From the NCBI GenBank assembly GCA_963714385.1, contig CAVQOJ010000003.1, positions 263,720 to 327,719 on the forward strand: a stretch of DNA of 64,000 bases, in the 5' to 3' direction. Below the pieces are notes generated by a model. It did no database searches and had not been told where the DNA came from. It saw nothing but the letters and a program-made list of their open reading frames with translations. Source of the stretch: an uncultured Holophagae bacterium. Its GTDB lineage: Bacteria > Acidobacteriota > Thermoanaerobaculia > Thermoanaerobaculales > Sulfomarinibacteraceae. Position numbers and translations under genes: made by a program. This document shows, in pieces, positions 2,383-63,914 of this stretch. Within the stretch, counting starts at the first letter, position 1. Each line of letters opens with the position of its first letter.

Positions 2383-2417
2383 CGAGATTCCAGATCCCCG
2401 AATCCCGAGCCCCGATG
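2383..2417. repeat. weak period-7 array (CGAGATT CCAGATC CCCGAAT CCCGAGC CCCGATG)
   Basis: Five degenerate heptads in register. A G-rich stretch lies just upstream (2345..2379, GGGG T GG A GGGG CTAT GGGG .. GGGG). Lies in the convergent spacer 2310..2523. Confidence 0.4.
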
Positions 2418-2462
2418 ATTGGTGTTTTGCTGTGTCCCTTTTCCGCGCGGGTGGGTGGGGGC

Positions 2463-2497
2463 AATTTTCAATTTTCAATTTTCAATTTTCAATCTTT
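2463..2497. repeat. period-7 tandem array AATTTTC x4 plus one degenerate unit, preceded by a G-box
   Basis: Perfect units at 2463-69, 2470-76, 2477-83 and 2484-90, then AATCTTT. GGGTGGGTGGGGG lies immediately upstream (2449..2461). Confidence 0.9.
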
Positions 2498-2523
2498 CGA
2501 TCGCCTGTCCGCGGACGCACCGA

Positions 2524-5500
2524 TCAATCGGGTGCTTTCCCCAGCGGCAGCTTGAGGGCGGGATCGGTGACCGCACCGATCTTGGCGGCGAAGCTGGTCC
2601 GGCGAGTGATGTCGTCGTCGGTGACGAAGTGCACGTCGAGCAGCCTGCGGCTCCGGTAACCCGTCCGCAGGTAGTTGATTTCGCCAAGGCAGAGGCTCCA
2701 CCCGTCGAGCCAGGTCTTGAGGTCTCGCTGTTGATCCGCGGAACCGTTGACATGGATCAGCAGGTCGATGTCCGACGACGGGCCAGCGCTGGCGTTCTTG
2801 GTGCTGCCGATGACGTAGAAGGCCTTCACGCCGAAGCGCTCAGCGTCGATTTCCCGCCCGATCTGCTCGGCCATCCGCATCCGCCACCGCCAGAACCCGC
2901 CGGGCCGTTCGGGTGTTTGACCTCCGGGGCGGGAATCGGAGGTACCGCGCCCGGCCTCGGGATCAGCGAGGAATCCGACGGCTTCGTCGAGATCCGCGTT
3001 CATCAGGACGCGCAGCACCCGTCCGTGCGACGACATGGGGACGTCGATCACCCGGACCACCGACTCGAGGTGGGCGTACTCCGGCGCCATTTCGGCCAGG
3101 AGGTTGGGCGCCCGGAGCAGGAAACGCTGGTTGAGAACTCCGGCCGAATCGTCGGGGTAGAGCGGGATGTACCTGATGGACGACTCCACCAGATCCTGGA
3201 AGAAGTGGGTTCCGAAGGAGAGATCGGGCACGTAGCTGCCCTTTTGACGGGCGATCTCGACCAGCACAGCGGTGTTGTTGATGTCCGAGTAGGTGACGTT
3301 GACGCCCATCCGGATGTCGCCGCGACTGCCCCAGCGGCCCGGCCCCATGAGGATGAACTGGCGTTTCGGCAGGACCTTGTTGAGCTTGCCGACCGCCTGG
3401 CCGACCGCGACCAGGTCGGCCCGTTCCGGCAGGGCGCCGTAGCCGTCAGGGTCGACGTAGACGATATGGGTGATGTCCGGAACCCAGCCGTTGGAAATGT
3501 AGCGGTTGGCCCGGAAGACCTTGTCTTCCTCGGCGATGTCCATCGGGATGGGGGCAGGAGTGTCCTGGGCCGAGTAGCTCTGGGGCCGGCATTGGAGGAG
3601 GTAGAAATCACTGCCGTCGAAGGCGAACTCGATGTCCACCGGGGTGCCGAGGTGCTCCTCCAGGATTTTGAGGATGTTGCCCACGTCACGAACGAAGGAG
3701 GTGTCCGAGATCAGCCCGTTGAAGTCGGCGACCAGCTCGTCTCGTTCGGGATCCACCAACACCGGCACCGCCCTCCGAAGGGTGTCGTCCTCGAGCACCG
3801 AGAAGACCTTGTCGAAGGCCGGATACGCGCCCCCGCACGATCGGAGGAGGTCCTTGATGCTCATTGTCTCGAAGCAGTTTGTGGTCAGGTTGAGGACGTC
3901 GATCTGGGTGGGCGAGTAGCGAATGGTCTCGTCGATGGTGGTGTTGACTCGGAGGCTCGGCTGCCCCGGAACCGCCAGGATCGGATAGTCGTCGCTGACC
4001 CGGTCGACGGCGCGCGTGCCGAGGCCGGGGACCAGCCGCAGCAGGCCGTCTTCGCGCTGGATTCGCGGCGACCAGCGGAACTCGTTGTTGGAGAAGGCCA
4101 CCCCGGCCAGGGCCGGGAAGAAGTAATCGCCGACCCGGCGTCCGACCACCTCCTGGATCAGCACCGCCATCTCCTCGTGAAAGTCGAGCAGGCCCTTCTC
4201 CCTTCGGTAGGCGATCGGATCGGGTCCGAAGATGGACGCGTAGACCTCGGTGATGGCGTCGAGCACGGCGCGCAGCCGCTCCGATTTGTCGCCCTGATTG
4301 GCCAGGAACAGGCTCTTGTACTTACCCGAGAAGGCGGAGCCCATCCGATCCTCGAGCAGGCTCGACGAGCGCACGATGAGAGGGTTCTCTCCGACCTCGT
4401 CCAACAGCATGGACAGGCCGCGGACGATGTCGGGTGGGAAGCGGGAGCTTTTGAACAGCTTGACGATGTTGGGGTACTCATGCCTGACCTGCTGGATCTC
4501 GCGGTACTTCTGTTGGAGAACCTCCTCGAGGTCGTTGTACTCGATGAAGTTCATGATCTCTTCGGAAGCCACGTACCAGCTTCGAGGCACCTTGACGGTG
4601 CCTACGGATCGGTCTTCATCCTGGAGTTTGGTCAGGATCTTCTGTGCGAGGAAGAGCCCGGAGGTCTTGCCGCCCAGCTTGCCGTAGCTGTCGGAGGACA
4701 GGATGACGTGGTCGAGCAGGTCGAGGAAGTCGCTGATGTCGAGGACCTCCTTGGCGACGGTGATGAGCTCGAGCTGCTCGGTGAGGAACCGTCGGATGAG
4801 GGCGACGGTCAGGCCGTCGACGGTGGACCGCGACAGCTCAGTGCCGCCGGACACGAGGTGGTGAAAGCGCTGCAAGCTCTCCGAGACCTCGGGAAGTGAG
4901 GACCTCGGGTTGTTGAGCACCTTCGGCAGGAAGCTGGCGTTGTCCTCGACGATCCACCCCTGGATCAGGTTGAACACTTCGTTGTGGCCGAGCACCGACG
5001 ACGCCAGCTCGAAAGGTCTGCCCCCCAGGAGCATTGGCTCGTTGATTCGACCCACCGGACCGGGGACATTGACCTCACCCGTGACACCCTGTGCCGGCTC
5101 CACCTCCCCGTACATTTCCTCGAGCAGCGCCTGGGATCCGTCGACACCGGCCCACCGCAGGTGGTTGACCATCTTGCGGGCGATCCGCAGGTAGAGCTTG
5201 CGGTCCGTGTGGCGGAGCAGGTCGATGGGACCCCGCCAACGGTCGGCCACCTGATCCTCGGTGTCCATTCCGGCGGTGGTCCACTCCAGCCGCATGTCGC
5301 GGAGCCGCTGGTAGAGAATGAAGTGTCCGATCCGCTCGGCGATGGTCCGGATCAGCCGCTCTTCCTCCTTCAGGAACGGCCCGATGTCCTCCCGGGGGCG
5401 CTCCTCGAGATAGCAGACGGTGAGGCTGCCAACCACCTCGTCCTGGGTGGTGATCGACGTGGTTTGCTCCCAGGGGGTGGAGCGAAAATCGGGGCTTTGA

Positions 5501-5712
5501 AACAGGCGGTCGCCGTAATGGATCTTCGCCCGGCAAACGTCGGGGTACTGCCAGCCGGGGGGAATCGCCTTCACCACGGCCTGGAGGGCCTCGTCCAGCG
5601 GGCGGTCGAGCTGGCCGAAGATCTGCTCGACCTCGTACAGGCAGTTCAGCTCCTTGGCGCGCTCCTGGAGGGATGCCAACAGCTTTTCGACCGGCCGTTC
5701 GGAGTCAGTCAT
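2524..5712 (-). CDS. PEP/pyruvate-binding (PPDK_N ATP-grasp) protein with C-terminal nucleotidyltransferase domain
   Basis: 1062-aa ORF. Central GGKTSGLFLA ... VRSSSLLEDRMGSAFSGKYKS block is PPDK_N-like. The LMGPGRWGSRGD ... SFGTHFFQDL block is shared with two paralogues in this window. C-terminal FYVIGSTKNASAGPSSDIDLLIHV is a minimal nucleotidyltransferase motif. No phosphohistidine swivel motif seen. Overlaps the upstream gene by 8 nt. Confidence 0.75.
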   Translation of the reverse strand: MTDSERPVEKLLASLQERAKELNCLYEVEQIFGQLDRPLDEALQAVVKAIPPGWQYPDVCRAKIHYGDRLFQSPDFRSTPWEQTTSITTQDEVVGSLTVCYLEERPREDIGPFLKEEERLIRTIAERIGHFILYQRLRDMRLEWTTAGMDTEDQVADRWRGPIDLLRHTDRKLYLRIARKMVNHLRWAGVDGSQALLEEMYGEVEPAQGVTGEVNVPGPVGRINEPMLLGGRPFELASSVLGHNEVFNLIQGWIVEDNASFLPKVLNNPRSSLPEVSESLQRFHHLVSGGTELSRSTVDGLTVALIRRFLTEQLELITVAKEVLDISDFLDLLDHVILSSDSYGKLGGKTSGLFLAQKILTKLQDEDRSVGTVKVPRSWYVASEEIMNFIEYNDLEEVLQQKYREIQQVRHEYPNIVKLFKSSRFPPDIVRGLSMLLDEVGENPLIVRSSSLLEDRMGSAFSGKYKSLFLANQGDKSERLRAVLDAITEVYASIFGPDPIAYRREKGLLDFHEEMAVLIQEVVGRRVGDYFFPALAGVAFSNNEFRWSPRIQREDGLLRLVPGLGTRAVDRVSDDYPILAVPGQPSLRVNTTIDETIRYSPTQIDVLNLTTNCFETMSIKDLLRSCGGAYPAFDKVFSVLEDDTLRRAVPVLVDPERDELVADFNGLISDTSFVRDVGNILKILEEHLGTPVDIEFAFDGSDFYLLQCRPQSYSAQDTPAPIPMDIAEEDKVFRANRYISNGWVPDITHIVYVDPDGYGALPERADLVAVGQAVGKLNKVLPKRQFILMGPGRWGSRGDIRMGVNVTYSDINNTAVLVEIARQKGSYVPDLSFGTHFFQDLVESSIRYIPLYPDDSAGVLNQRFLLRAPNLLAEMAPEYAHLESVVRVIDVPMSSHGRVLRVLMNADLDEAVGFLADPEAGRGTSDSRPGGQTPERPGGFWRWRMRMAEQIGREIDAERFGVKAFYVIGSTKNASAGPSSDIDLLIHVNGSADQQRDLKTWLDGWSLCLGEINYLRTGYRSRRLLDVHFVTDDDITRRTSFAAKIGAVTDPALKLPLGKAPD

Positions 5713-7453
5713 GGCGGGTCATCACTCCCCGTCCCCGGCTCCCGTCGACGCGGACGCCGAGAGGTTTGGGGACTCTGACGTGACGGATGTTGTCGGTTTC
5801 GAAGACGGCGGGTTGCGACTCCAGCCATGCCCAGTCGACGGTGCCCGGGCGGTGGTGCTCGACGGCGAGGCAGAGCACCTGGAAGCTGAGCACGTTGTGG
5901 AAGAAGTGCGAGCCCTGGCTGAGGTCCGGGTCGATCTCGGGGGTCGTGACCTCGATGATGACCCTGGCGCCGCTGATCTGTCCCCAGGCCACCGGAACGC
6001 CGAGCCGCTCGTCGGAGGTGCCCCAGCGGCCGAAGCCCAGCAGAACGTACCGGCGCCCGTCGGCGAGCAGGTTCCGATTGATCGTCTCCAGGTCCCGGGC
6101 CATGATCGAGGTAGAGCGGGGATCGAAGGCGTCCGGGCGGATGTAGACGATGTCTCTGATGTCGTGGAGCTCGCCGTTGCCGAGCACCCTGGTGGACGAA
6201 ATCACCACGTTGTCGCCGGTCAGATCGGCATCTTCGACGCGCACTTCCTCGAGGCCCACCCGCATCGGCCGAACCTGGAGAAACCCGAATCGCGCGGGCA
6301 GGAGATCTGTGCGATGGAGGCGCACGGCGAACTCGATCTCGACGTCGGCCCCCAGCGACGCCTTCGAGTGGTTCAGCAGATCGGTGATCAGGCTGACGAA
6401 GCCATCCCACCGCGAGCCGATCAGGGGGGCGAAGGTGAGGGCTCTCGGCCCTCGACCCCCCATTCCGGGGTTGATCCGGTCGGAACCTCCATCGTAGGTG
6501 GAGACGACGTGGTTGAGGGAGCCGTCCGCTTCCGCCTCCTTGAGGCCGGGCCGCACCAGGTACTCGGTCTCCCGCACCGGGTCGGGCAGCGGCGGGTCCC
6601 CCATGTGAACCGCCCAGAACTCCCGCTGGGTGTTCTTGAGCAGGTCGCCGACGTCGTTGAAGGGCGGCGGCGCAGCCGGCGCCGAGGGCGAGAAACCCCA
6701 GCACAGGCCGCCGTCGACGATGGTCTTGCCCAGCCCGAGCGCCAGATAGACCACGCCCTCATCGCCCCGAGCGCGGCCGGTGGGGTAGAAGTTGAACGAG
6801 CGCGCCACCCCGGACACGGTTGGGTAGAAACGGTCACCGACGCGCTCGCCGATCACCTCCTGAACGATCACCGCCATTTCCTCTGCCGGCGTGTCGTGGC
6901 CGAGGGCACGGTGGTAATCCCGGGCGGCGGAGAAGAAGGTGCTCGCATAGACGAACTTCACCGCCTCCGCCAGGCGGCGGAACCTGGCATCCTCCTCGAT
7001 CTCGTTGTTGGGGATCATCTTGGTGGCGTAGACCCCGGCAAAGGGGTGGCGAAGGTCGTCCTCGAGCAGGCTCGACGAGCGAACCGCCAGTGGAGTGTGG
7101 ACCGACGAGATTAGGCCTCGCAGGTCGCCCACCAGCTCGGCGGGGAGCTCGGCTCGTTGGAAGGCGTGGGCGATGCGGTCATCCGAGACGTCGGACGTCA
7201 CCACGGGGCGGAGTTGGTTTTGATCCATGAAGGCGCGGAACAGATCGGTGGAGATCACGGTCATTGTCGGCACCGTGACGGTGATCCCGGGATACTTCCC
7301 CTGATCAAGCCGGGGGAGGATGTCCGCGTCGATCAGACGCAGGCCGCTCGCCTTGCCGCCGAGTGCACCCGTACCGATCCGGGTGAGGGTCTCACCGGTC
7401 TCGGTGAAGGTGCGATCGAACCGCGGGATGTCCCGCGACGGGTCCTTCGTCAT
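5705..7453 (-). CDS. PEP/pyruvate-binding (PPDK_N ATP-grasp) domain protein, no swivel domain
   Basis: 582-aa ORF with GALGGKASGLRLI and LAVRSSSLLEDDLRHPFAGVYATK, followed by the C-terminal LLGFGRWGTSDERLGVPVAWGQIS ... SQGSHFFHNV block. Confidence 0.75.
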   Translation of the reverse strand: MTKDPSRDIPRFDRTFTETGETLTRIGTGALGGKASGLRLIDADILPRLDQGKYPGITVTVPTMTVISTDLFRAFMDQNQLRPVVTSDVSDDRIAHAFQRAELPAELVGDLRGLISSVHTPLAVRSSSLLEDDLRHPFAGVYATKMIPNNEIEEDARFRRLAEAVKFVYASTFFSAARDYHRALGHDTPAEEMAVIVQEVIGERVGDRFYPTVSGVARSFNFYPTGRARGDEGVVYLALGLGKTIVDGGLCWGFSPSAPAAPPPFNDVGDLLKNTQREFWAVHMGDPPLPDPVRETEYLVRPGLKEAEADGSLNHVVSTYDGGSDRINPGMGGRGPRALTFAPLIGSRWDGFVSLITDLLNHSKASLGADVEIEFAVRLHRTDLLPARFGFLQVRPMRVGLEEVRVEDADLTGDNVVISSTRVLGNGELHDIRDIVYIRPDAFDPRSTSIMARDLETINRNLLADGRRYVLLGFGRWGTSDERLGVPVAWGQISGARVIIEVTTPEIDPDLSQGSHFFHNVLSFQVLCLAVEHHRPGTVDWAWLESQPAVFETDNIRHVRVPKPLGVRVDGSRGRGVMTRHD

Positions 7454-7533
7454 GACCTGTCCAGGGTGCGGTCGAGACAGAACGATGTCAAGCAGAGGGC
7501 TCGCACCGTACGAGCGGAATGACCTTCCGAGCG

Positions 7534-7561
7534 AGTCAAAAGTCGAAAGTCGAAAGTCAAA
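7534..7561. repeat. period-7 array AGTCAAA AGTCGAA AGTCGAA AGTCAAA
   Basis: Four units in exact register. Left arm of an inverted pair with 7607..7641. Confidence 0.9.
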
Positions 7562-7606
7562 AATCCATTGACTCGGGTCGAATCAGCAAGGACGAGCGGC
7601 AACCAG

Positions 7607-7641
7607 GACTTTAGACTTTGGGCTTTAGACTTTAGACTTTT
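7607..7641. repeat. period-7 array GACTTTA GACTTTG GGCTTTA GACTTTA GACTTTT
   Basis: Five units, reverse-complementary in 6 of 7 positions per unit to the 7534..7561 array. The spacer between the arms is 45 nt. Confidence 0.9.
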
Positions 7642-7653
7642 TTCTCGAGAAGT

Positions 7654-8941
7654 TCAGACCCACCCGCGTTCATAGCACAGAGTGGCGACCCGATCGACGG
7701 CGATGACCAGGGCGGCCTCGCGCATGGTAAGCCCCTTTTTGCGGCTGAGCTCGGAGACCGCGATGAACGCCGAGGTGATCTGGCGGTCGAGCTTGGAGAG
7801 GATCTCGTCGAGCCGCCAGTAGTAGTTCATGGCGCCCTGGACCTGCTCGAAGTACGAGCAGGTGACGCCGCCGCCGTTGGCCAGGATGTCCGGAATGATG
7901 AAAACACCGCGATCGAGCAGAATCTGCTCGGCGGCCGGGGTGGTGGGTCCGTTGGCGCCCTCGGCGACGATCCGGACCGTCGACCGAACCCGGACTACGT
8001 TGTCGGCGGTGATCTGATGCTCCAGGGCGGCGGGAATCAGAATCTCCACCTCCTGCTCGAGCCAGGCATCGCCCGCCAGCACTTCATACCCGAGCTTCGA
8101 CGCCTTGTCGCGGTCGATGTCGCCGAGACGGTCCGAGGCTTCTCGGAGCTCCGCGAGGTCGACGCCACCGTTCTTGCGGAACGCCACCGCCTCGCCGCGA
8201 CCGTGATCCCAGCACGAAACGCACACCACGGCTGCCGCCGATCCGCTGATAGAGCTCGATGGCGTGCTGGGCCACGTTGCCGAATCCCTGCACCGATGCG
8301 GTGGTGGCGGCAGGGTCGAGGCCGACCTCCTTGAGCGCCTCGCGAAGGGTGTAGACCAACCCGTAGCCGGTGGCTTCGGGCCGTCCCAGGGAGCCTCCGG
8401 CACCGATGGTCTTGCCGGTGAGCGAACCGGGAGCGTGCTCGCCCAGCACCGTCTCGTACTCGTCGAGCATCCAGGTCATGTGCTGGGCTGTGGACATGAT
8501 GTCGCGCGACGGCACGTCGCGGCCCGGACCGAGGTAGCGGGCGGTCTTGCGGACCCAGGCGCGGCAAAGCCGCTCCTGCTCCGCCGGGCTCAGCCGGTGG
8601 GGGTCGCACAAGACTCCGCCCATGCTGCCGCCGAGAGGCAGGTCCAAAAGCGCGGTCTTCCAGGTCATCCACATGGCCAGAGCCCTGATGGTGTCGATGG
8701 TCTCGAGGGGGTGGAAGCGGACGCCGCCCCAGAATGGGCCCCGCACGTCGTTGTGCTGCACCCGGTGCCCCCTGAAGACCTCGACCTTGCCGTTGTCCAT
8801 TTTCACCGGCAGGGCGAAGTGGTGCTCGTGCAAGGGGGATCGTAGGAGCTGCCGCACCGGCTCGTCGAGTCCCATCAGGTCGGCCGTGTTGTCGAACTGG
8901 GTCTGGGCGACTGCGAAGGCATTGAAAACGGTGTCGTTCAT
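7654..8941 (-). pseudogene. Glu/Leu/Phe/Val dehydrogenase family gene interrupted by one frameshift (or an assembly indel)
   Basis: N-terminal half lies in ORF 8084..9067 from ATG 8941 (MNDTVFNAF ... [13 protein letters not shown] ... [22 protein letters not shown]). C-terminal half lies in ORF 7654..8403 (AAVVCVS ... [46 protein letters not shown]). The frames meet near 8232..8245, and skipping one nt restores a single ~428-aa protein. Confidence 0.75.
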
Positions 8942-9023
8942 CGGGATGGACCCCCTCGGAGCGATGATGGCACATCTTGAGAACGGGGGTGGAGAGAGTA
9001 TGGGGGTGGGGAGGGTGAAGGAG

Positions 9024-9051
9024 GAAATTCGAAATTCGGAATTCGAATTCC
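9024..9051. repeat. period-7 array GAAATTC GAAATTC GGAATTC GAATTCC, preceded by a G-box
   Basis: Four units in register. G tracts at 8985-89, 9002-06, 9008-11 and 9013-15 lie immediately upstream. Confidence 0.85.
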
Positions 9052-9066
9052 GAGTATGGAGTAACA

Positions 9067-9092
9067 AAACGGCGGCCCGAAGGCCGCCGTTT
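9067..9092 (-). terminator. hairpin terminator downstream of gdhA
   Basis: AAACGGCGGCC cgaa GGCCGCCGTTT: perfect 11-bp stem with a 4-nt loop, 21 nt after the gdhA stop. On the minus strand it is followed by TGTT. Confidence 0.6.
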
Positions 9093-9112
9093 GATTCGAG
9101 CCGATTTTAAGA

Positions 9113-10531
<1,419 letters not shown>

Positions 10532-10706
10532 TCAGATGACAGCGTGATGATCCGAGTTTCGAGCGACGACTCTTCGGTCGGGGGCAGGTGAGGAACGCGG
10601 GTTCGTGACGAAAGCTGGAGTGGACGCTCCATGGCCAGCGAGGATACTCTTGCGGCCCAACGATGACAACCGGGGGATTTGGCGACTGTCGATAGCCCGC
10701 CCCCCG

Positions 10707-13685
10707 TCAGTCGGCGGCACCCTCGAGAATCACCCCGCGGCCGGAGGCGCCGTCGACCAGAACCTGCGCCGGCCGCTCCAGCCGGATGTGCCTGATGACG
10801 CCGTCGAGCAAGGTGGCGACTGTATCCTGGCCGTCGAACCACGGCCAGTTGACGGTACCCTGATCGCAGTGCGCGTGAACCGCAAAAAATGCGACGCCAA
10901 AGCAGGTGAGGTTGTGGAAGAAATGCGATCCCAGTGAGGGTTCGACCTGCAGATCGTAGAAATCGGTCTCGACGATCGCCCTGACGGAGGAGATCTGGGG
11001 CCAGGTGACCGGAATCCCGAGCCACGGGTCCCTGGATCCCCAACGGCCGGGGCCGATCAGAATGCTATGGCGACCCTCCAGCCGGAGGCTTCGATTGAGG
11101 GCCTCGATGGCGCTCGCAGCCTGGGCGGTGGCGGCGCGGTCGAAGCCGTCCGGGTGAATCAAAATGACGTCGGAGATGGTCTCTCTCCGGCCGTGGCCGA
11201 GGGCCATCTCGGACCGCACCAGAGCTTTTTCCAGGGTTTTCGGATCGAGGTGGATCTCGACGTTCATGTCCTCCACCACCAACGGCCGGAGCTGAAGAAC
11301 GTGGAGGGTTTGGATTCGGCCCAGGCCGGGCTCGATGTCGGCGGCGAACTCGATCTCCACCGGGCTGGCCAAGCCTTCGGCGCAGGCCGGCAACAGCCGG
11401 CGCAGCACCTCCGGAAGCGGCAGGATCCTGCCCTTCAGGATGGGCCCGAAGGTGATCAGGGGGGTGCCGCCGTCTTCCAAACCGACGGTGACCCTGTCGT
11501 CCGCACGTCGATAGGTGGAGACGATGGCGTTGGCGGCGCCGTCGGCGATGGCCACGGAGGTCTCCATGTGGACCAGGTTGGCGTCGGGTTCGAGACCGGG
11601 CAGGACGTCGCCGCGTGACATGTCCAGGGCGTAGAACCGTCGCTGGGCGTTGCGCAACATGTCGGGGACCGAGGAAAACTGGGGCAACGACTGAGGGTAG
11701 GCCGGCGAGAACCGGAGCGCCTCGAAGCCCTCGACCACGCTCTTGCCGAGACCGAGGGCCACCTGGGCGACCCCGTCCTCGGGCGTCATGTTGCCGAAGG
11801 GGTAGAAGTTGTAGGACGAGGCGACGCCGGACAGGGTGGGGTAGAAGTGGTCACCCCATCGCCGGCCGACCAGACGTTGGACCAGCACCGCCATCACCTC
11901 CTCCTCGATCCGGTAGGGGGTGGTTTCGATGTAGGCTCGCGAGTGCCGGAAGTAGGTGGAGGCGAACACGGTCTTGACCGCCTCGAGCAGCTGAGCCAGC
12001 CGAACATCGAGCGAGGGGTGGGTGTTGGGCAGCATGATGGTCGAGTAGACGCCGGCAAACGGCTGGTACACCGAGTCTTCGAGAATGCTCGACGACCGAA
12101 CCGCCAGCGGATCGTGGTTGGACTCGAGAAAAGCGATCAGCTGCGAGACCAGGCCCGGCGCGAAGCGGCCGCTGCGAAACTCGTCGAGGATCTCCGCGTC
12201 GGTCAGCAGATCGGCCTCGAGGGCCAACCGCCGCAGGTCGTTTCCGTCCAGGAAATCCTCGAAGACATCGGAGGCGAGCACCACGGTCTGCGGGACCGAC
12301 ACCCGGACGCCCGCCGTCTCCAGATCACCGGTGGCCAGCAGCTTGTGCATGAAGGCCAGGCCTCGGCCCTTGCCGCCGAGGGACCCGGTTCCGATTCTGG
12401 CGAAGGCCACAAAACGGTCGTAGGTCGCGGGGTCGAAATCAGTGATGACGTGGCTCTGGATGTCCCGGAGATAGGTGGTGATGGTCTGGATGAGGAACTG
12501 GCGGAGCTCGGCGGACGAGGCAAACTCGGAGACCTTGCGCGGCCGCATCGCCGACGCCAGCTCGAACTCGGTTCGCGCTTTCAACCATGCCGAGAAGTGG
12601 TTGCGGCTGGCGTGGTACACCAGCGACTGGTCGGGCATGGATTCGAGCAGGTGGAGCATTTCGCGCATGTCCTTGGCGCGGGCGATAGGTTTGCCGTCGG
12701 GGAACTTGAAGACGAAATCACCGAACCCGAAGTGGTCCTGGATGAAGTGGCGGAGGTCCTCGAGCAGGGTGGCCGACTTCTTCCACACGAACTCGGCGTT
12801 CACCTCGATCGCCTGCGGCTCGTGGGTCTTGTCCGCCGATTGCAGCAGGATCGGCAGGTCTTCGTCCTCCGATCGAATCTTGCGGGCGAGCTCGATGCCG
12901 GCGAGCTCGTCCAGCTTGCCGCCGCGCGGAAAGGAGACGTCGCAGATGACGCCCAGGATGTTCTTGCCGTACTTGCGGTACAGCTCCCACGCCTCCTCCC
13001 AGGTCTGTGCGAGCAGGATTTTGGGCCGCGCCCTGATCCGCAGCATGCGGTGTGAGAGGTTGAGGCCGTCGGCCATCAGCCGGCTGGTCTGGGAGGTGAC
13101 CTCGGTGTAGATCTGGGGGAGGTAGGCCGAGTAGGCGCGCACGTCGTCCTCGATGATGACGATCGCCTGGACCCCGCCCTCGAGGATGTCGTGGTCGGCA
13201 TTGCGGCGGTCTTCGACCTGCTTGATCATGGCCAGTAGGGCCTGGACGTTGCCCTGCCAGAGGAAGACCCAGTCGACGGCACCGGTCGATCTGAGCTCTT
13301 CCAACCACGGCAGCTCCCAGGCGTGGGCCGCCACCAGTCCAACCGGGATTTCCGGCTCGATCTCCCGCAACCGTTGGACGAAATCCACAGGCTCGGTGTC
13401 CTGCAGCCGTGGGGTGGTGATCACCATGTCGAAGTCGCGTTCCTGAACGTACTTGCAGGCCTCTGCGGCGGAGGAAACCCGAGTGAAACGTGGCGCGTAG
13501 CGCAGGTTCAGGTCGAGATTCCGGTACTCTTCGAAGACCAACTCGGTGAGCTGCCCGTCCTCCTCCAGCACGAAGGCGTCGTAGTGGGAGGCCACCAGCA
13601 GGATTTCGATGATCCGGTGCTTCATCAGCGCCGAGAACTCCTCGGTGCGCATTCCGTAGCGGCTGGACAGCTCGAGTGGGGCCAT
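10707..13685 (-). CDS. receiver-domain protein fused to a PEP/pyruvate-binding (PPDK_N ATP-grasp) module
   Basis: ORF 10707..13913 trimmed to ATG 13685, because the upstream 76 codons read through the GAATTCG array. Two receiver-like N-terminal modules come first. They are followed by GSLGGKGRGLAFM, LAVRSSSILEDSVYQPFAGVYST and the GPGRWGSRDPWLGIPVTWPQIS ... SLGSHFFHNL block shared with 5705..7453. Confidence 0.75.
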   Translation of the reverse strand: MAPLELSSRYGMRTEEFSALMKHRIIEILLVASHYDAFVLEEDGQLTELVFEEYRNLDLNLRYAPRFTRVSSAAEACKYVQERDFDMVITTPRLQDTEPVDFVQRLREIEPEIPVGLVAAHAWELPWLEELRSTGAVDWVFLWQGNVQALLAMIKQVEDRRNADHDILEGGVQAIVIIEDDVRAYSAYLPQIYTEVTSQTSRLMADGLNLSHRMLRIRARPKILLAQTWEEAWELYRKYGKNILGVICDVSFPRGGKLDELAGIELARKIRSEDEDLPILLQSADKTHEPQAIEVNAEFVWKKSATLLEDLRHFIQDHFGFGDFVFKFPDGKPIARAKDMREMLHLLESMPDQSLVYHASRNHFSAWLKARTEFELASAMRPRKVSEFASSAELRQFLIQTITTYLRDIQSHVITDFDPATYDRFVAFARIGTGSLGGKGRGLAFMHKLLATGDLETAGVRVSVPQTVVLASDVFEDFLDGNDLRRLALEADLLTDAEILDEFRSGRFAPGLVSQLIAFLESNHDPLAVRSSSILEDSVYQPFAGVYSTIMLPNTHPSLDVRLAQLLEAVKTVFASTYFRHSRAYIETTPYRIEEEVMAVLVQRLVGRRWGDHFYPTLSGVASSYNFYPFGNMTPEDGVAQVALGLGKSVVEGFEALRFSPAYPQSLPQFSSVPDMLRNAQRRFYALDMSRGDVLPGLEPDANLVHMETSVAIADGAANAIVSTYRRADDRVTVGLEDGGTPLITFGPILKGRILPLPEVLRRLLPACAEGLASPVEIEFAADIEPGLGRIQTLHVLQLRPLVVEDMNVEIHLDPKTLEKALVRSEMALGHGRRETISDVILIHPDGFDRAATAQAASAIEALNRSLRLEGRHSILIGPGRWGSRDPWLGIPVTWPQISSVRAIVETDFYDLQVEPSLGSHFFHNLTCFGVAFFAVHAHCDQGTVNWPWFDGQDTVATLLDGVIRHIRLERPAQVLVDGASGRGVILEGAAD

Positions 13686-13719
13686 GACTCCGTCGAGATT
13701 ACCAGAAGCGGGGGGGAGT

Positions 13720-13754
13720 GAATTTGGAATTCGGAATTCGGAATTCGGAAAACC
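13720..13754. repeat. period-7 array GAATTTG GAATTCG x3 GAAAACC
   Basis: Five units in register with a G7 run at 13710-16. Lies 35 nt upstream of the ATG at 13685. Near-identical to 37689..37723 and 54166..54193 when read on the other strand. Confidence 0.9.
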
Positions 13755-13827
13755 GATCCCGAATCGCGGCGGGTCCGTCGATCGATTTCTTATGACCTGT
13801 GCGCAGCGAGAGGTAGAAATTCGATCG

Positions 13828-14952
<1,125 letters not shown>

Positions 14953-14980
14953 GGCGTGACCGCGGTGTCCAGATTGGGGC

Positions 14981-14998
14981 GTCAAACGCTAAAAGTCA
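14981..14998. repeat. left part of a period-7 array (GTCAAAC GCTAAAA GTCA) split by the 14999..15846 element
   Basis: It continues at 15847..15865 (AAAAGTCAAACGTCCGGA). Removing the element and one AAAAGTCA copy restores GTCAAAC GCTAAAA GTCAAAC GTCCGGA in exact register. Confidence 0.7.
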
Positions 14999-54152: not shown

Positions 54153-54193
54153 CGTTTTCGAATTCGGTTTTCCGAATTCCGAATTCCGAATTT
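54153..54193. repeat. period-7 array CGTTTTC GAATTC GGTTTTC CGAATTC CGAATTC CGAATTT
   Basis: 54166..54193 is near-identical to 37689..37723 and to the reverse complement of 13720..13754. Lies between the gloB stop and the GATase start. Confidence 0.9.
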
Positions 54194-54225
54194 CCTCGTG
54201 CCGGCCAATCTCGGCCATACCCCGA

Positions 54226-56077: not shown

Positions 56078-56378
56078 TCGGGCGAGCCGCAACCGGGTGG
56101 TCTGCCGTGATCGTGGGGTTCCCGACGGCTGGGTCGTGGTGGCGGTCTACCACAACCCGGCGTGCCCGGGCGATGGCGCCAACGCCCTGGTCGTCAAGCG
56201 CCCCGGCCGCCGCGACGTCGTGTGGTCCGAGTCGCCCGTTCCAGACGGCTACTCGAAAACACGGTCGACCCACTCGGAGCACTTCCCGGGCGAAGGCGAC
56301 AATGCCGTCGTCATCGAGCGGAAAATCGAGAATGAAAAATGGAAAATGAAAAAACCGAGATCGCCGCGGGAGAGTTGA
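56070..56378 (+). CDS. small hypothetical protein with an internal duplication
   Basis: GTG 56070 overlaps the gshB stop. Two ~30-aa repeats (VPDGWVVVAVYHNPACPGDGANALVVKRP and VPDGYSKTRSTHSEHFPGEGDNAVVIER). The last ~15 codons run through the heptad array at 56320..56354. Confidence 0.4.
   Translation: MSDRASRNRVVCRDRGVPDGWVVVAVYHNPACPGDGANALVVKRPGRRDVVWSESPVPDGYSKTRSTHSEHFPGEGDNAVVIERKIENEKWKMKKPRSPRES
56320..56354. repeat. period-7 array GGAAAAT CGAGAAT GAAAAAT GGAAAAT GAAAAAA
   Basis: Five units in register. Related to the reverse complement of the AATTTTC array at 2463..2497. Confidence 0.85.
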
Positions 56379-56465: not shown

Positions 56466-56509
56466 CTTCGAAAAGCGGGGTAGGGAGGGAAGGGGGCAGC
56501 TTTTCGAAG
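56466..56509. repeat. hairpin with a G-quadruplex motif in its loop
   Basis: Arms CTTCGAAAAGC (56466-76) and GCTTTTCGAAG (56499-509), 11 bp perfect. The loop GGGGTAGGGAGGGAAGGGGGCA carries four G tracts. An extra right-arm copy CGCTTTTCGAAGCG lies at 56554-67. A second copy of the element starts at 63967. Confidence 0.8.
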
Positions 56510-61456: not shown

Positions 61457-61512
61457 CAGTTGGCCGTTAGCCGTTGGCCGTTAGCAGTTAGCCGTTGGCA
61501 GTTTACGGTGTC
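61457..61512. repeat. period-7 array, 8 units (CAGTTGG CCGTTAG CCGTTGG CCGTTAG CAGTTAG CCGTTGG CAGTTTA CGGTGTC)
   Basis: Longest array in the window. Its reverse complement family (AACGGCC / AACTGCC) lies at 61992..62026. Confidence 0.9.
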
Positions 61513-61539
61513 GCAGCCGTTGGCTGCTGCTGTCGGTGA

Positions 61540-61570
61540 GTTGGAAATTGAACGTTCCGCCCGCCCTCCC
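61540..61570. repeat. period-7 units GTTGGAA ATTGAAC GTT fused to the C-box CCGCCCGCCCTCCC
   Basis: Homologous to 44503..44541 and 21265..21296, including the upstream CTGCTGCTGTCGG segment. Confidence 0.8.
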
Positions 61571-61971
61571 ATCATTGGAGACAGAAAAACACAGAGAAAC
61601 ACTGACTTCCCCCGCCCGCCCGGGTGAGAAGGGGAGGAGGGGAGAAAAGGAGAAAGAAAAAACCCTGAATGTGGATAGGGAAACCCATCCTCCCACCTGG
61701 GTGAGATGAGGAGAAGGGGAAGGCTCCCGTCGACGCCTCCTTCCATTGTCATCCCGAACGAGGGCCGAAGGGCCGAGGAGGGATCCGTTCGACTCGCTTC
61801 TCTCGCTCAGGACAAGTCTGGGTCAGCGGTTGATGCCATAAACCACTCGAGAGAGCCCGAACAGGACGACTCGGTTGCACATAACGAACCGATCCGCGCC
61901 GAACGATTCCCGAGATTGCCCAGGTTCTTCCGTGACCCTTCAGTTCCCGTTCCCAATGACATCCATCGGCT

Positions 61972-62052
61972 GGGCCGGGTGGGCGGGCGGGAATTCCCAA
62001 CTGCCAACGGCAAACGGCCAACTGACATCCGGGTGGGTGGGCGGGGGCTGGG
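61972..62052. repeat. G-box, period-7 array, G-box composite
   Basis: GGGCCGGGTGGGCGGGCGGG (61972-91). AATTCCC AACTGCC AACGGCA AACGGCC AACTGAC (61992-62026). GGGTGGGTGGGCGGGGGCTGGG (62031-52). Ends 38 nt before murB. Confidence 0.9.
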
Positions 62053-63196: not shown

Positions 63197-63231
63197 AGTC
63201 AAAAGTCCAAAGTCAAAAGTCGAAAGTCGGA
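63197..63231. repeat. period-7 array AGTCAAA AGTCCAA AGTCAAA AGTCGAA AGTCGGA
   Basis: Starts 7 nt after the murB stop. Same leader (GCGGAGTCAAAAGT) as the array after oleA. Confidence 0.9.
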
Positions 63232-63372
63232 TGGCGAAGGTCGAGGGGGGTTGGGCATCGGGCTTGGATTGAAGGCCTGTCGGTCGGGCGTGGTTGGTTT
63301 AATTGGAAGGTGGTTGACGCGGTGAAGATCGGGCCGCACATTGGAGTGGGTTCGCTCCGAGGAGGGTTTGCA

Positions 63373-63864
63373 ATGAACGCAACGAAACTCGTCGGCGTGG
63401 TCGCAGTCATCGGTGTGGTAGGTCTGGCTGGAGTCGCCGGTGCGGCGGAGGGCTCGGATGACAATCGGCTGGCGGGGGTCGAGGAATCCCTGGCTCGAAT
63501 TGAAGCTCTCCTTGAGGAGCTGGTCGAGACCTCGAAGGCGAACGTCATCGCGTCCATCTACGAGACAACAGTGACGCGAATCGGTGTGGTAGAGAGCAGG
63601 CATGCCGAGATCGAGAAGGAGGAGCGTGCAACGCTGTTTGCAATCGAAGGCGTTCGAGGGCGACTCGACGATTTGTCCACCACGGGGATGGCGCTGACGA
63701 ACGACGAAAAGACCGAGATCGCTTCCGATCTTGAACAACGAGCGATTGAATTTGAAGAGTCCCTCAGGGATTTTAGGTCCGCGATCGCGGAGCTCGAAGT
63801 TGAACTCCTCAGTCTCGAGGTTCAAAGAAGCAAACTCGAGGAAGCGATCGCAGATCTGCAGTAA
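63373..63864 (+). CDS. small secreted coiled-coil protein, lower G+C than its neighbours
   Basis: ATG 63373 within ORF 62395..63864. Signal-like MNATKLVGVVAVIGVVGLAGVAGAAEG, then a heptad-rich Glu/Leu/Ile helix. Third codon positions are visibly richer in A/T than in flanking genes. Confidence 0.55.
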   Translation: MNATKLVGVVAVIGVVGLAGVAGAAEGSDDNRLAGVEESLARIEALLEELVETSKANVIASIYETTVTRIGVVESRHAEIEKEERATLFAIEGVRGRLDDLSTTGMALTNDEKTEIASDLEQRAIEFEESLRDFRSAIAELEVELLSLEVQRSKLEEAIADLQ

Positions 63865-63868
63865 AACT

Positions 63869-63914
63869 GGGCGGGCGGGTGGGAACTTTCGACTTTCAAC
63901 TTTCAACTGCCAAC
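63869..63914. repeat. G-box GGGCGGGCGGGTGGG fused to the period-7 array AACTTTC GACTTTC AACTTTC AACTGCC AAC
   Basis: The G-box starts 5 nt after the stop at 63862-64. The array is inverted relative to 63197..63231. Confidence 0.9.

Follow-up and report, generated by a model that had tools for sequence, protein, structure and literature searches.

Tandem heptamer arrays in the intergenic spacers of an uncultured Holophagae bacterium: a dense example of a known repeat class, possibly maintained as selfish palindromes

Many intergenic spacers in a 64,000-nucleotide stretch of an uncultured Holophagae genome (contig CAVQOJ010000003.1; hereafter the window) contain short tandem arrays of 7-nt units, which raises the question of what these arrays are and how they arise. 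The window has a G+C content of 65.9%, and its nearest relatives are Acidobacteriota MAGs with Holophagae/Thermoanaerobaculia labels. A sequence-only reading of this DNA had described an exact 7-nt register with a different unit at each locus, and concluded that no described class fits.

Period-7 arrays in the intergenic spacers

For array detection, Tandem Repeats Finder (TRF) and our own lag-7 scan were applied over the window, with a threshold of at least three units and at least 85% lag-7 identity and with block shuffles as the control. The arrays reported previously were recovered at their positions; 61540–61556 consists of only about 2.4 imperfect units. The window contains 21 period-7 arrays, compared to a mean of 0.3 in the shuffles. 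Among periods 4–15, seven is the only one so strongly enriched; periods 4, 5, and 8–15 have zero or one array each, and period 6 has five. Arrays with at least three units number 17 per 6,365 intergenic bases and one per 57,635 coding bases, an approximately 150-fold spacer excess. Two three-unit G+C-rich matches within coding sequences (24508 and 49759) look like chance. On our gene map, an array is present in 15 of the 23 spacers that measure 80 bp or more, in line with the earlier estimate of about 15 of 22 spacers above 80 bp. The register is less exact than had been claimed: the enrichment of period 7 is clear, but TRF reported 3–15% indels in four arrays, and one unit in 33910–33944 has 8 nt. 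Super-periods of 14 and 21 nt are also present inside arrays according to TRF. Across 163 period-7 arrays, the median copy number is 4.3 (interquartile range 3.6–4.7).

The arrays are located near stop codons, as had been noticed before. The nearest stop codon is a median of 31 nt away, compared to 126 nt for random placement in the same spacers, and 12 of the 21 arrays are within 35 nt; none of 5000 random placements matched either the median or this count. Five arrays are only 0, 3, 6, 7, and 8 nt away. By spacer type, arrays are found in four of five convergent, 10 of 14 co-directional, and one of four divergent spacers. The earlier description of A/T-rich islands holds for arrays with 21–44% G+C, but not for CCGTTGG/AACNGCC (54–57%). 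Likewise, the arrays are confined to spacers as claimed, except that 32581–32615 runs over the MatE stop codon (gene end 32584). Two conserved promoters, those of the malate dehydrogenase (MDH) and PFK genes, have arrays adjoining the -35 position. The plus-strand array (ATTCCGA)×4–5 at 37689–37723 ends 10 nt before the conserved extended -10 of the MDH gene (TGGTATGCT, 37734–37742), and the order at the PFK gene of relatives is terminator, array, -35, 17 nt, and -10.

Array units, inverted pairs, and folding

The heptamers are variants of AAA(R)(G/T)(T/C)N and form about nine related families, several of which occur at two to five loci. On the A-rich strand, the units are AAAATTG, AAAAGTC, AAAGTCY, AAAGTTG (four arrays), AAACGTT, AAACGTG, AAATGTG, AAATTCG, AATTCCG (three arrays), AAAATGG, AATCCGC, AACGGCC, and AACTGCC. 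Common to them are an A3–4 tract and a G/T-rich triplet; the T-rich strand reads GACTTTT, CACTTTT, or CAACTTT. The claim of a fixed period with locus-specific units is thus upheld for the period in the window and its nearest relatives, whereas the units belong to limited families and the sister clades prefer period 8 (see below). Moreover, many units that had been listed as distinct are reverse complements of those in a neighboring array. Such inverted neighbors are 7533/7607, 32581/32639, 33837/33910, 21251/21865, 61457/61992, and 63197/63884.

Three short pairs fold into hairpins with z-scores of -2.9 to -3.6. The first, (AGTCRAA)×4 at 7533–7565 and (GACTTTN)×5 at 7607–7641, forms a long hairpin with a 41-nt loop (-39.8 kcal/mol, z -3.6) 13 nt past the point where the upstream minus-strand gene stops. 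The second, on the plus strand, is (GTGAAAN)×5 at 32581–32615 with (CACTTTN)×5 at 32639–32674 (-35.9 kcal/mol, z -3.2); the MatE stop codon falls in its first GTGAAAN unit. The third, also on the plus strand, is (AGTCAAA)×5 at 33837–33871 with (GACTTTN)×4.5 at 33910–33944 (-41.1 kcal/mol, z -2.9), located 6 nt past the stop of an oleA-like gene and 19 nt ahead of an oleB-like start. Other pairs are more widely spaced. On the plus strand, (AGTCRAA)×5–7 at 63197–63231, 7 nt past a stop, is followed by a small ORF (63373–63864), a G-tract (63869–63879), and (AACTTTC/GACTTTC)×4 at 63884–63914, 20 nt past the stop of this ORF; the two arrays are 74% complementary. The divergent spacer at 61457–62041 contains (CCGTTRG)×6–8 (61457–61512), GTTGGAAATTGAACGTT (61540–61556), a C-tract (61560–61570), a G-tract (61972–61983), (AACNGCC)×5 (61992–62026), which is the inverse of the CCGTTRG array, and another G-tract (62031–62041).

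The remaining arrays vary in structure. Self-complementary (GAAATTC/GGAATTC)×4 at 9023–9051 (fold z -2.9) adjoins a G-tract at 9002–9015 (a C-tract on the sense strand), and this module lies between the intrinsic terminator of the upstream GDH gene (9066–9092) and the next gene. The G-run GGGGGGGAG (13710–13718) followed by (GGAATTC)×4–5 (13719–13753) is about 35 nt upstream of a minus-strand ATG at 13684. The array (CGAATTC)×5–6 at 54153–54195 has a 14-nt super-period and a fold z of -2.3, and is 31 nt past the stop codon of the minus-strand gene upstream. In a convergent spacer, the G-tract GGGTGGGTGGGGG (2449–2461) is directly followed by (CAATTTT)×5 (2460–2497), with the stop of the minus-strand gene 27 nt away; the likely opposite half of this module is an imperfect A-rich array with a C-tract at 2313–2344. 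Another array, (AACGTTT)×5 at 15902–15938, has a unit that includes the palindrome AACGTT and is 11 nt past the stop of an E2 acyltransferase gene on the minus strand, and (GRAAAAT)×5 at 56320–56354 is unstructured (z +0.25) in a 490-bp convergent spacer. The unpaired CAATTTT, GRAAAAT, CAATCCG, and AACGTTT arrays have no partner and z-scores of -1.7 to +2.0, such that a hairpin is not the common denominator of the arrays.

G3/C3-tract motifs are a frequent neighbor. In the window, 12 of 13 are intergenic, and nine of these 12 lie within 9 nt of an array. Among all loci examined, a motif of this kind lies no more than 10 nt from 17 of the 78 A/T-rich period-7 arrays, at a motif density of only 0.09 per kb. 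One identical array with a GCGG flank was found behind three different genes. For the asymmetry of G·U against A·C, a test of selection at the RNA level, the counts are 24 for the sense strand and 19 for the antisense strand, with no clear sense-strand excess of G·U.

Turnover among relatives and preferred period

Alignment of orthologous spacers, a check that the sequence-only reading had proposed, indicated that the closest relative (L001) shares array position and period with the window but not unit sequence and copy number. At oleA|oleB, the L001 hairpin has one unit fewer on both arms. The MatE|oleA hairpin of the window is missing from L001, whose orthologous spacer retains just GTGTGAC AGGTGAC. 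The units at the MDH promoter have all diverged together (AATTCCG in the window, AATTTTC in L001), with (CAATTTT)×4.5 occupying the place of 37689–37723 in L001. Between oleC and oleD, modules are inserted in L001, L003, and L007, whereas the two genes overlap in most other relatives compared. After the oleA stop, most relatives have a small stem-loop, CGATTCGC-N4-GCGAATCG, that is conserved with compensatory changes; the window, L001, L003, L007, and L081 instead have heptamer hairpins of 113–131 nt. At this intercistronic site, the arrays occupy the position of the relatives' ordinary small stem-loop. In L163, one array family has grown to about 50 units.

Period 7 is almost the only period in the window, L001, L003, L007, and L161–L164, whereas the sister clades (MDH-based clusters 5 and 8) have mostly period 8, a contrast that is based on samples of about 20 kb per genome and in which repeated copies of single elements (L050) account for part of the period-8 signal. 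One sister-clade spacer type has period-8 arrays with the AACGTT core of the window's array at 15902. The earlier proposal that three heptamers (21 bp, two helical turns) present a phased surface is unsupported, as three 8-nt units amount to 24 bp, a non-integral number of turns. Relatives L058, L060, L066, and L071 have G+C-rich units such as GGGGACC, GACCGTG, and CCGGGGA.

Relation to known heptamer repeats

Tandem heptanucleotides with varying units are, as cited in two later papers, the most abundant category of longer SSRs in most bacterial genomes (Mrazek 2007 in PMC4679880, PMC4692102), and intergenic tandem heptamers appear in such accounts as the top intergenic periodic repeat reported in prokaryotes, with no function assigned there. 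The window's arrays belong to this class of prokaryotic intergenic heptanucleotide repeats, because their period-7 enrichment and restriction to spacers match the published traits. The earlier statement that no described class fits is therefore not upheld; its exclusion of CRISPR, attC, ERIC, and classical REP/BIME is. As in the 5–11-nt long SSRs (Mrazek et al. 2007, cited in both PMC4679880 and PMC4692102) and the tandem heptamer repeats of Mori et al. 2018 (PMC6344855), 7-nt units are joined head to tail in few copies, the intergenic excess is strong, and units vary between loci and genomes. Compared to heptanucleotide SSRs generally, the window is denser (21 arrays in 64 kb, 15 of 23 spacers), has A/T-rich units in a 66% G+C genome and sister clades with period 8, and ties its arrays to G3/C3-tract motifs and inverted pairing.

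The GGGAATC repeats of Xanthomonas and GGGGAYT of Nostoc (Rehm et al. 2015, PMC4692102) are similar in that most have about four units, many form inverted pairs and hence stem-loops, and they tend strongly to adjoin or overlap stop codons but are rare between divergent genes; sister species of Xanthomonas share the gene context but differ in array length. However, their G-tract lies inside every unit, making the array itself quadruplex-capable, whereas the window's G-tracts are a separate block beside an A/T-rich array, and one unit dominates each Xanthomonas genome, compared to about nine families here. Arrays of four or five heptamers at many loci are also known from Geobacter metallireducens (4×GGGACCG at 49 loci and paired 5×MTYCTGA; PMC2700814) and Beggiatoaceae (TAACTGA; PMC4679880), and GGGACCG resembles the G+C-rich units of L058, L060, L066, and L071. 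These genomes have one or two fixed units each. Moreover, the GGGACCG elements also occur within genes (PMC2700814), and TAACTGA is mostly directly upstream of start codons (PMC4679880), whereas the window's arrays favor the 3' side of genes. Cyanobacterial STRR, as cited in PMC4692102 for three tandem heptanucleotides of Calothrix PCC 7601, likewise place several heptamer units in the non-coding DNA of one genome. They are found in another phylum and have other units. We know of no link between STRR heptamers and G-tracts or inverted pairs.

REP/BIME and MITE palindromes are also intergenic, palindromic, and multi-copy, vary in presence between close relatives, favor 3' ends and convergent spacers, and serve as insertion targets for other mobile elements. 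In the window, however, tandem heptamers make up the arms in place of a fixed palindrome of 20–40 nt, and the short modules were not seen to have a GTAG/CGTC head, target duplication, or RAYT-type transposase.

Possible roles as RNA elements or protein-binding sites

The arrays could be selected RNA elements, in which long A/U-rich hairpins of paired arrays, transcribed just past stop codons, cause transcription termination or attenuation, shield 3' ends, or act as RNase III sites, similar to REP hairpins and rRNA intervening sequences (IVSs), with heptamers being merely the way in which stems grow. The proximity of 12 arrays to stop codons, the replacement of a stem-loop that has compensatory changes, and the joint change of both arms between the window and L001 are consistent with this explanation, as are the folds of the three short pairs and their orthologues in L001, L003, L007, and L081 (z -2.6 to -8.2). 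Xanthomonas heptamers are likewise near stop codons and mostly transcribed (PMC4692102). Nevertheless, solo arrays do not fold, and the oleA|oleB array of some relatives, (GAAGAAC)n, is unstructured. Both at 9023 and in the MDH|PFK spacers, a canonical terminator precedes the array, which is thus probably outside the main transcript. A simple terminator scan called no array hairpin and its matches were no more frequent than in shuffles, the sole match in an array spacer being a small stem within the 7533/7607 loop; a search of the arrays against Rfam had no match even at an E-value of 0.5. We therefore regard this explanation as rather unlikely.

A wider form of the phased-surface idea is that the arrays are candidate targets of a protein that recognizes nucleic acid in increments of 7 nt. 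For duplex DNA, this reader could be of the nucleoid or AT-hook type, or it could be the alpha subunit of RNA polymerase at UP-element-like sites; other candidates are cold-shock-domain proteins, each bound to one heptamer of the T-rich single strand, and the pentameric four-helix-bundle IVS protein itself. The narrow copy number of about 4–5 units (28–35 bp), which is the same in Xanthomonas and Geobacter, the shared tract and triplet of the units, and the arrays beside the MDH and PFK promoters would suit such a protein. CspB, according to work cited in PMC4679880, binds single-strand heptamers and prefers T-rich ones such as the T-rich strand here may offer, and a preferred period that is a clade-level trait is what a heritable factor would give. 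On the other hand, the 163 period-7 arrays comprise 92 distinct units with G+C contents from 13% to above 80%, which is hard to reconcile with one sequence-specific protein. The AACGTT core in period-8 arrays argues against helical phasing, many arrays are between convergent genes and distant from promoters, and a promoter scan placed a single consensus-like site in an array, with no excess of sites over shuffles. A dedicated 7-nt reader is accordingly a doubtful explanation.

A foldback element lodged in the arrays

A foldback mobile element is present on the plus strand at 14999–15846 (14991–15854 with its duplications). It has terminal inverted repeats (GGTTCATCCGG from 14999, CCAGATGAGCC to 15846) and an ORF (15322–15693) for a four-helix-bundle protein of the 23S-rRNA-IVS type (Pfam PF05635, E-value 4e-14; TIGR02436, 2.6e-14). 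The 8-bp target duplication, AAAAGTCA, is found at 14991–14998 and 15847–15854 and nowhere else in the window, and the insertion site is an imperfect heptamer array (AAACGCT AAAAGTC AAACGTC). A second copy, with the ORF deleted, is part of the composite convergent spacer at 21251–21911: (GTTGAAA)×4 (21251–21283), 3 nt past a stop, is followed by a C-tract (21282–21296), a short GTTGAAAGTTG, the foldback copy (21317–21866; 91% identity to 14986–15948 over 270 bp), (AACTTTC)×3.6 (21865–21893), and a G-tract (21893–21911). This entire spacer folds into a rod-like structure (-350 kcal/mol compared to -270 ± 9.5, z -8.5). A partial copy lies in 44499–44777, between (AGTTGAA)×3.6 (44499–44528) with its C-tract (44527–44537) and (CAATCCG)×5 (44742–44777), which is 8 nt from the stop of a minus-strand gene. 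Among nine copies of the element, six adjoin strong arrays and two adjoin moderate arrays. The arrays are preferred insertion sites of this multicopy element.

Like the 23S rRNA IVS of the Coxiella burnetii type (S23p ORF; PMC4990558), the element is a selfish, multi-copy sequence whose PF05635 ORF is enclosed by long inverted repeats, but it resides in intergenic arrays rather than in helix 45 of 23S rRNA and has 8-bp target duplications. If a transposable element inserted and excised again and again, each cycle would add a target-site duplication, with its length as the period and the local target as the unit. This process would predict a fixed period with locus-dependent units, and in the period-8 genome L010 the duplication is exactly one unit (GAACGTTA). 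However, the duplication is also 8 bp in period-7 genomes, namely in the window and in L161 (AGACGTTA/AAACGTTA), such that period and duplication length disagree. In addition, the arrays flanking the element are inverted rather than direct, empty sites with the array alone are found in L009, L013, L017, and L005, and identical arrays share non-repeat flanks at several loci. An origin as excision footprints is thus highly improbable; the element lodges in the arrays and is distinct from them. Finally, assembly or sequencing artefacts are a negligible explanation, as several independent MAG assemblies, including contigs of about 1 Mb, have the same array families at orthologous positions.

Proposed origin and maintenance of the arrays

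The explanation that we favor, with about even confidence, is that the arrays are slippage-driven, REP/MITE-like selfish palindromic repeats, a local form of the known heptanucleotide repeats. A module is an A/T-rich run of about 4–5 heptamers, often with a G3/C3-tract cap. As the two halves of a module are often inverted, the DNA or RNA can fold into a hairpin of at least 30 bp. Units may multiply and homogenize through slipped-strand or template-switch events of one or two units per step, with a preferred step of 7 nt in the window's clade and probably 8 nt in the sister clades, and whole modules may be gained, lost, and replaced in the manner of REP/MITE-type selfish palindromes. Neither a transposase nor a target duplication nor conserved ends came to light for the short hairpin modules themselves, such that their mobility is suggested only by presence/absence and common flanks. 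The arrays would persist where they cause the least harm, namely immediately past stop codons, in the stretch that separates a terminator from the following promoter, and in convergent spacers. The narrow copy number of about 4–5 units is not what free slippage predicts; it hints at a length constraint, and with it a function or binding partner. At these sites, the arrays may act as hairpins at transcript 3' ends or between cistrons, and may provide A/T-rich DNA upstream of some promoters.

Enrichment and Position of the Heptamer Arrays

The sequence-only reading had described tandem 7-nt repeats between the genes of the window. This observation is confirmed, and the interpretation attached to it is partly supported. 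Tandem Repeats Finder recovers period-7 arrays at essentially all of the coordinates first listed. A lag-p scan, which required at least 85% identity across at least three units, found 21 period-7 arrays in the window compared with a mean of 0.3 in block shuffles; in the same scan, period 6 gave five arrays and periods 4, 5, and 8–15 gave none or one. According to a gene map made from third-position G+C and Pfam matches, spacers make up 6,365 of the 64,000 bases yet contain all but one of the 18 arrays of three or more units. The confinement to spacers is thus borne out (17 arrays in 6.4 kb versus one in 57.6 kb of CDS), and the share of longer spacers (80 bp or more) that carry an array, 15 of 23, agrees with the first estimate of about 15 of 22. 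In the relatives, periods 7 and 8 are also mostly intergenic, whereas periods 6, 9, and 12 are mostly coding. An assembly artifact is very unlikely, because array families are shared at orthologous sites of independent assemblies.

Arrays occur in 4/5 convergent, 10/14 co-directional, and 1/4 divergent spacers. They lie a median of 31 nt from the closest stop codon, compared with 126 nt for random placement within spacers, and none of 5000 randomizations matched the observed value. Most arrays are A/T-rich, as had been claimed (21–44% G+C in a window of 65.9% G+C), with the exception of the CCGTTGG/AACNGCC pair (54–57%).

Among the neighboring genes on the minus strand, a glutamate/leucine-type dehydrogenase gene at 7654–9067 is split over overlapping frames (7654–8403 and 8084–9067) and has an intact paralogue at 9113–10468; the split copy reflects either pseudogene formation by frameshift or a sequencing error. 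Three further paralogues on this strand (2524–5712, 5705–7453, and 10707–13684) have a PPDK_N (pyruvate phosphate dikinase ATP-binding) domain, one of them with a nucleotidyltransferase domain and one with a response-regulator receiver domain.

Unit Families, Inverted Pairing, and G-Tract Blocks

Written on the A-rich strand, the units in the window are AAAATTG, AAAAGTC, AAAGTCY, AAAGTTG, AAACGTT, AAACGTG, AAATGTG, AAATTCG, AATTCCG, AAAATGG, AATCCGC, AACGGCC, and AACTGCC. They form about nine related, non-arbitrary families, several of which recur (AAAGTTG in four arrays, the AAAGTC family in five, and the AATTC family in four). The claim of a constant period with a locus-specific unit stands inside the window and its nearest relatives, with the units drawn from this limited set of families. 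The number of units per array is narrowly distributed (median 4.3, interquartile range 3.6–4.7; 163 period-7 arrays with 92 different units), and two-unit arrays are very scarce in the window spacers.

Six inverted pairs were found among the window arrays. Three, named by the first coordinates of their arrays, have loops of 23–41 nt (7533/7607, 32581/32639, and 33837/33910), with predicted folds of -36 to -41 kcal/mol (z -2.9 to -3.6); the other three are separated by about 480–650 nt (21251/21865, 61457/61992, and 63197/63884). Units based on GAATTC or AACGTT hold 6-bp palindromes; the GAATTC-type arrays have some self-structure (z -1.6 to -2.9) and the AACGTTT array has none (z -0.2). Hairpins are frequent but not universal, because solitary arrays without structure exist (CAATTTT, GRAAAAT, and CAATCCG; z -1.7 to +2.0). 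The pair 63197/63884 brackets, in a cassette-like manner, a small ORF at 63373–63864 (163 aa) without a family match, whose hydrophobic N-terminus leads into a coiled-coil-like region.

Blocks of G3 or C3 tracts accompany the arrays (e.g., GGGTGGGTGGGGG, GGGCGGGCGGGTGGG, and CCCGCCCTCCC). The window contains 13 matches to (G3+ N1-2)2 G3+ or its complement, of which 12 are in spacers and nine lie within 9 nt of an array. Across all fetched loci, where the background density of such blocks is 0.09 per kb, 17 of 78 A/T-rich period-7 arrays have one within 10 nt. The full module, with the order 5'-array, C-tract, loop, G-tract, inverse array-3', is present at 2313–2497 of the window and in the oleA|oleB spacers of three related loci (L003, L007, and L081). 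Separately, a hairpin of the form TTCGAAAAGC-loop-GCTTTTCGAA, its G-rich loop containing four G-tracts, occurs twice, at 56467–56500 and 63968–64000, the second copy being interrupted by the window end.

Comparison of Orthologous Spacers

The malate dehydrogenase (MDH) gene at 37839–38852 has its nearest matches in Acidobacteriota MAGs with Holophagae, Thermoanaerobaculia, or Sulfomarinibacteraceae labels, the best being L001 (94% identity). A metagenome scan for closer relatives with the oleB-like protein reached a maximum of 71% identity, and exact-sequence look-ups of MDH, P0001, and P0023 gave no match. About 25 MDH-retrieved loci share the gene order MatE, oleA, oleB, oleC, oleD, MDH, PFK, and this synteny provided six orthologous spacers for comparison. 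In the window, 32700–37548 is an oleABCD-like olefin-synthesis cluster, encoding a KAS III-like thiolase, an alpha/beta hydrolase, an AMP-dependent ligase, and a 3-beta-HSD-type reductase, with MatE upstream and MDH and PFK downstream.

At oleA|oleB, most relatives have either overlapping genes or a small stem-loop that immediately follows the oleA stop, CGATTCGC-N4-GCGAATCG (L009, L010, L011, L013, L017, L084, L088, and others), with compensatory variants CGATTTGC/GCAAATCG and CAATTCGC/GCGAATTG. In the clade of the window, heptamer hairpins stand in its place. The window and L001 share an AGTCNAA/GACTTTN hairpin, each arm being one unit shorter in L001; in L003, L007, and L081, the hairpin is of GAATTNT/ATTGAGA type and is built around a CCC/GGG core; and the (GAAGAAC)n array of L086, L092, and L027 is unstructured. 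At MatE|oleA, an 85-bp hairpin is present in the window, with the stop codon inside its first unit, and L001 has only GTGTGAC AGGTGAC at this site. At oleC|oleD, the genes overlap in most other relatives compared and are 11 nt apart in the window, and L001, L003, and L007 have array modules of 70–145 bp.

At oleD|MDH, the array in both the window and L001 ends 8–10 nt upstream of a conserved extended -10 (TGGTATGCT), and the units are all alike per genome, being AATTCCG in the window versus AATTTTC in L001. This extended -10 (TGGTATKCT) is strongly conserved upstream of MDH in about 25 loci and is followed by a conserved leader, CTCGTGCAWWTTTTCACAC; together, they span window 37734–37777, have no Rfam match, and may represent a cis-regulatory element. 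At 37565–37645, 17 nt past the oleD-like stop, the arms of a perfect 23-bp inverted repeat enclose a loop of 35 nt, and L001 has a diverged counterpart at the equivalent position. At MDH|PFK, Sulfomarinibacteraceae-type relatives have, in order, the stop codon, a canonical terminator, three to five copies of AACGTTNN, and a TTG 17 nt before the -10 box.

These alignments indicate that array position and period persist over short evolutionary distances, but unit sequence and copy number change, and that whole modules are gained and lost among relatives. The copy-number differences, seen among relatives that are not near-identical strains, range from one unit per arm between the window and L001 to a 50-unit expansion in L163. 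In the latter (1504–2010), the CCGTTGG/AACGGCC family has grown to an array of about 50 units that shows a 21-nt super-period (ACGGCTC ACGGCCA ACGGCCA); a 114-aa gene called over it has no family match and is probably spurious.

Repeat Period Across Clades

The window, L001, L003, and L007 have almost purely period-7 arrays, and the sister-genome loci L161–L164 have 19 period-7 and no period-8 arrays in 64.5 kb, with the unit families of the window. Period 8 prevails in MDH-based clusters 5 and 8; a further cluster combines period 7 with G+C-rich units, and arrays are absent from some clades. The AACGTT core occurs at period 7 in the window (15902) and mostly at period 8 in L005, L009, L010, L013, and L017. 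Sampled at about 20 kb per genome, the preferred period is a clade-specific trait. The earlier suggestion that three heptads (21 bp) make two helical turns, and thus a phased surface, is disfavored because one sister-clade spacer type has the AACGTT core of array 15902 at period 8; in view of the period-8 arrays of the sister clades, helical phasing was rejected.

One example from the mainly period-8 clusters, L050, has 13 intergenic period-8 and no period-7 arrays, a count that stems from three copies (89% identical) of one 600-bp non-coding element at 5980–6660, 11050–11720, and 13330–14010. The element is bordered by inverted tandem 8-mer arrays (ACGCAGAG, ACGCAAAG/CTTTGCGY, CTCTGCG) and contains several perfect hairpins; it lacks an obvious ORF and is not similar to the foldback element described below. 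Related arrays are present in the oleB|oleC spacers of L010, L017, and L035.

A Foldback Element Lodged in the Arrays

A foldback element occupies 14999–15846 (14991–15854 with its target duplication), and further copies are located at 21317–21866 and about 44540–44740. The spacers 14986–15948 and 21249–21918 share 270 bp at 91% and 210 bp at 75% identity, and the spacer 44466–44784 holds a fragment. The terminal inverted repeats are GGTTCATCCGG.../...CCGGATGAGCC, with a right end of ...CCGGATGARCC, and the internal sub-repeats are of CAGCGR/CAGGGA type. An ORF at 15322–15693 matches PF05635 (23S rRNA intervening-sequence protein; E 4e-14) and TIGR02436 (four-helix-bundle protein). In the copy at about 21.3–21.9 kb, the ORF interior is deleted, and the spacer 21249–21918 is predicted to fold into a 670-nt rod (z -8.5).

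The window copy is flanked on both sides by the 8-mer AAAAGTCA, which is absent elsewhere in the 64 kb. In L010, a unit of an AACGTT 8-mer array, GAACGTTA, stands on either side of the element, and L005, L009, L013, and L017 have this array without the element (empty sites). Nine copies were examined (two each in the window, L010, and L164, and one each in L161, L162, and L163); strong arrays adjoin six of them (GTTGAAA, AACGTT twice, RRACGTT, AGTCAAA, and AAAGTTG) and moderate arrays adjoin two. Homologues of the intervening-sequence (IVS)-type protein number 4147 at E below 1e-5; among them are many paralogues, 93–97% identical, on single contigs of about 1 Mb. Because 8/9 copies adjoin arrays and the homologues are highly multicopy, the arrays, whether of heptamers or octamers, are preferred landing sites of a multicopy selfish foldback element. 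For the period-7 genomes, the converse reading of arrays as target-duplication footprints is rejected because the duplication is 8 bp versus a period of 7 and the element-flanking arrays are inverted.

Like a 23S rRNA IVS, the element has a PF05635/TIGR02436 ORF between long inverted repeats; however, it lies between protein-coding genes rather than inside a 23S rRNA helix, and Rfam detected no rRNA in the window. This likeness belongs to the lodger and not to the arrays. The element also has all the features of a MITE (terminal inverted repeats, target duplication, multiple copies, and presence/absence variation), whereas the short array hairpins have the last two and no target duplication was found for them.

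Relationship to Known Repeat Classes

Tandem heptamers are reported to be the commonest periodic repeat of prokaryotic intergenic DNA, and the reason for the period of 7 is unexplained (PMC6344855). According to Mrazek 2007, as cited in PMC4679880 and PMC4692102, heptanucleotide repeats outnumber every other category of longer SSRs in most bacterial genomes; polymerase slippage has been put forward as the cause of the 7-nt step (PMC4679880, PMC4692102). The GGGAATC arrays of Xanthomonas mostly have four units, form 70–75 inverted pairs per genome, are found very near stop codons or overlapping them, and seldom occur between divergent genes; between two species, their gene context is kept but their length is not (PMC4692102). 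Geobacter metallireducens has 4 x GGGACCG at 49 loci and paired sites with 5 x MTYCTGA (PMC2700814).

The arrays had been thought to fit no described class. This view does not hold, as head-to-tail copies of at least three units above chance and a non-coding concentration are the defining features of intergenic heptanucleotide SSRs (within the 5–11-nt unit range). The arrays belong to this known, unexplained class and are unusually dense and multi-family. Their size, six inverted pairs, proximity to stop codons, and scarcity in divergent spacers are Xanthomonas-like. However, the Xanthomonas/Nostoc G-quadruplex heptamers have a G3-4 tract in every unit, whereas the window units are A/T-rich and the G-tracts form a separate adjacent block. 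This tight association with quadruplex-type G-tracts, and the use of arrays as insertion sites by an element carrying an IVS/Avd-like protein, go beyond the heptamer-repeat reports compared here.

The separation from REP/BIME and CRISPR was correct. REP/BIME sequences are conserved, imperfect 20–40-nt palindromes with a GTAG or CGTC head, whereas the arms in the window are tandem heptamers of several families; neither head was found in the array sequences inspected, and no RAYT (IS200/IS605-like) transposase was found among the annotated genes of the 64-kb window and sampled loci. CRISPR repeats are identical, 24–50 nt long, and interleaved with unique spacers of similar length, whereas the units here are 7 nt and directly adjacent. 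Among curated RNA families, there was no Rfam 15 match at gathering score or at E up to 0.5.

Possible Origins and Significance

The favored explanation is that arrays would grow by slippage or template switch in steps of one or two units, and that palindromic modules capped by G-tracts would be gained, lost, and replaced in a REP/MITE-like manner while being tolerated chiefly on the 3' side of genes. We infer slippage as the array generator, mobility of the short modules, and any transcript or promoter effect. Against a purely neutral view, the narrow 4–5-unit size and the clade-specific step hint at a trans-acting partner. A purely RNA-hairpin view is opposed by the solitary unstructured arrays; in addition, some arrays lie after terminators, and a G.U versus A.C asymmetry test for RNA-level selection (24 versus 19) gave no clear sense-strand G.U excess.

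Arrays as intrinsic terminators or sigma-70 promoters were rejected because consensus scan matches are at shuffle level. The array hairpins do not qualify as a G+C-rich stem with a T run; no array hairpin was listed in a terminator scan of 1–20000, where the sole array-spacer match was a small stem in the 7533/7607 loop, and canonical terminators (9066–9092 and 38877–38896) are separate from arrays. A manual -35/-10 search found good spacing only at the PFK promoter of the relatives and proximity to the extended -10 at MDH; nothing consistent was found at 9023, 13719, 54153, and 33910. A coding role for arrays or foldbacks was rejected, since the overlying ORFs lack family matches, the IVS protein excepted. 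For annotation, array spacers contain selfish repeats and spurious ORFs such as that over the L163 array.

With its unusually dense arrays, this lineage is useful for asking why the period is 7. The period can be separated from sequence because many unit families coexist in one genome, and a useful comparison is provided by close relatives that retain position and period but not unit and by sister clades that switched to 8. Comparative handles are offered by the contrast between periods 7 and 8, by the G-tract caps, and by the way the IVS-type element targets the arrays. It seems improbable, though conceivable, that the repeat step (7 versus 8 nt) is heritable and set by a trans-acting factor, with the capped 4–5-unit arrays as docking sites that are actively produced and maintained; candidates for such a factor are a replication/repair enzyme or the machinery behind the movement of the four-helix-bundle (Avd-like) foldback elements. 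If this were true, the arrays would be a genome-structuring system rather than passive microsatellites.
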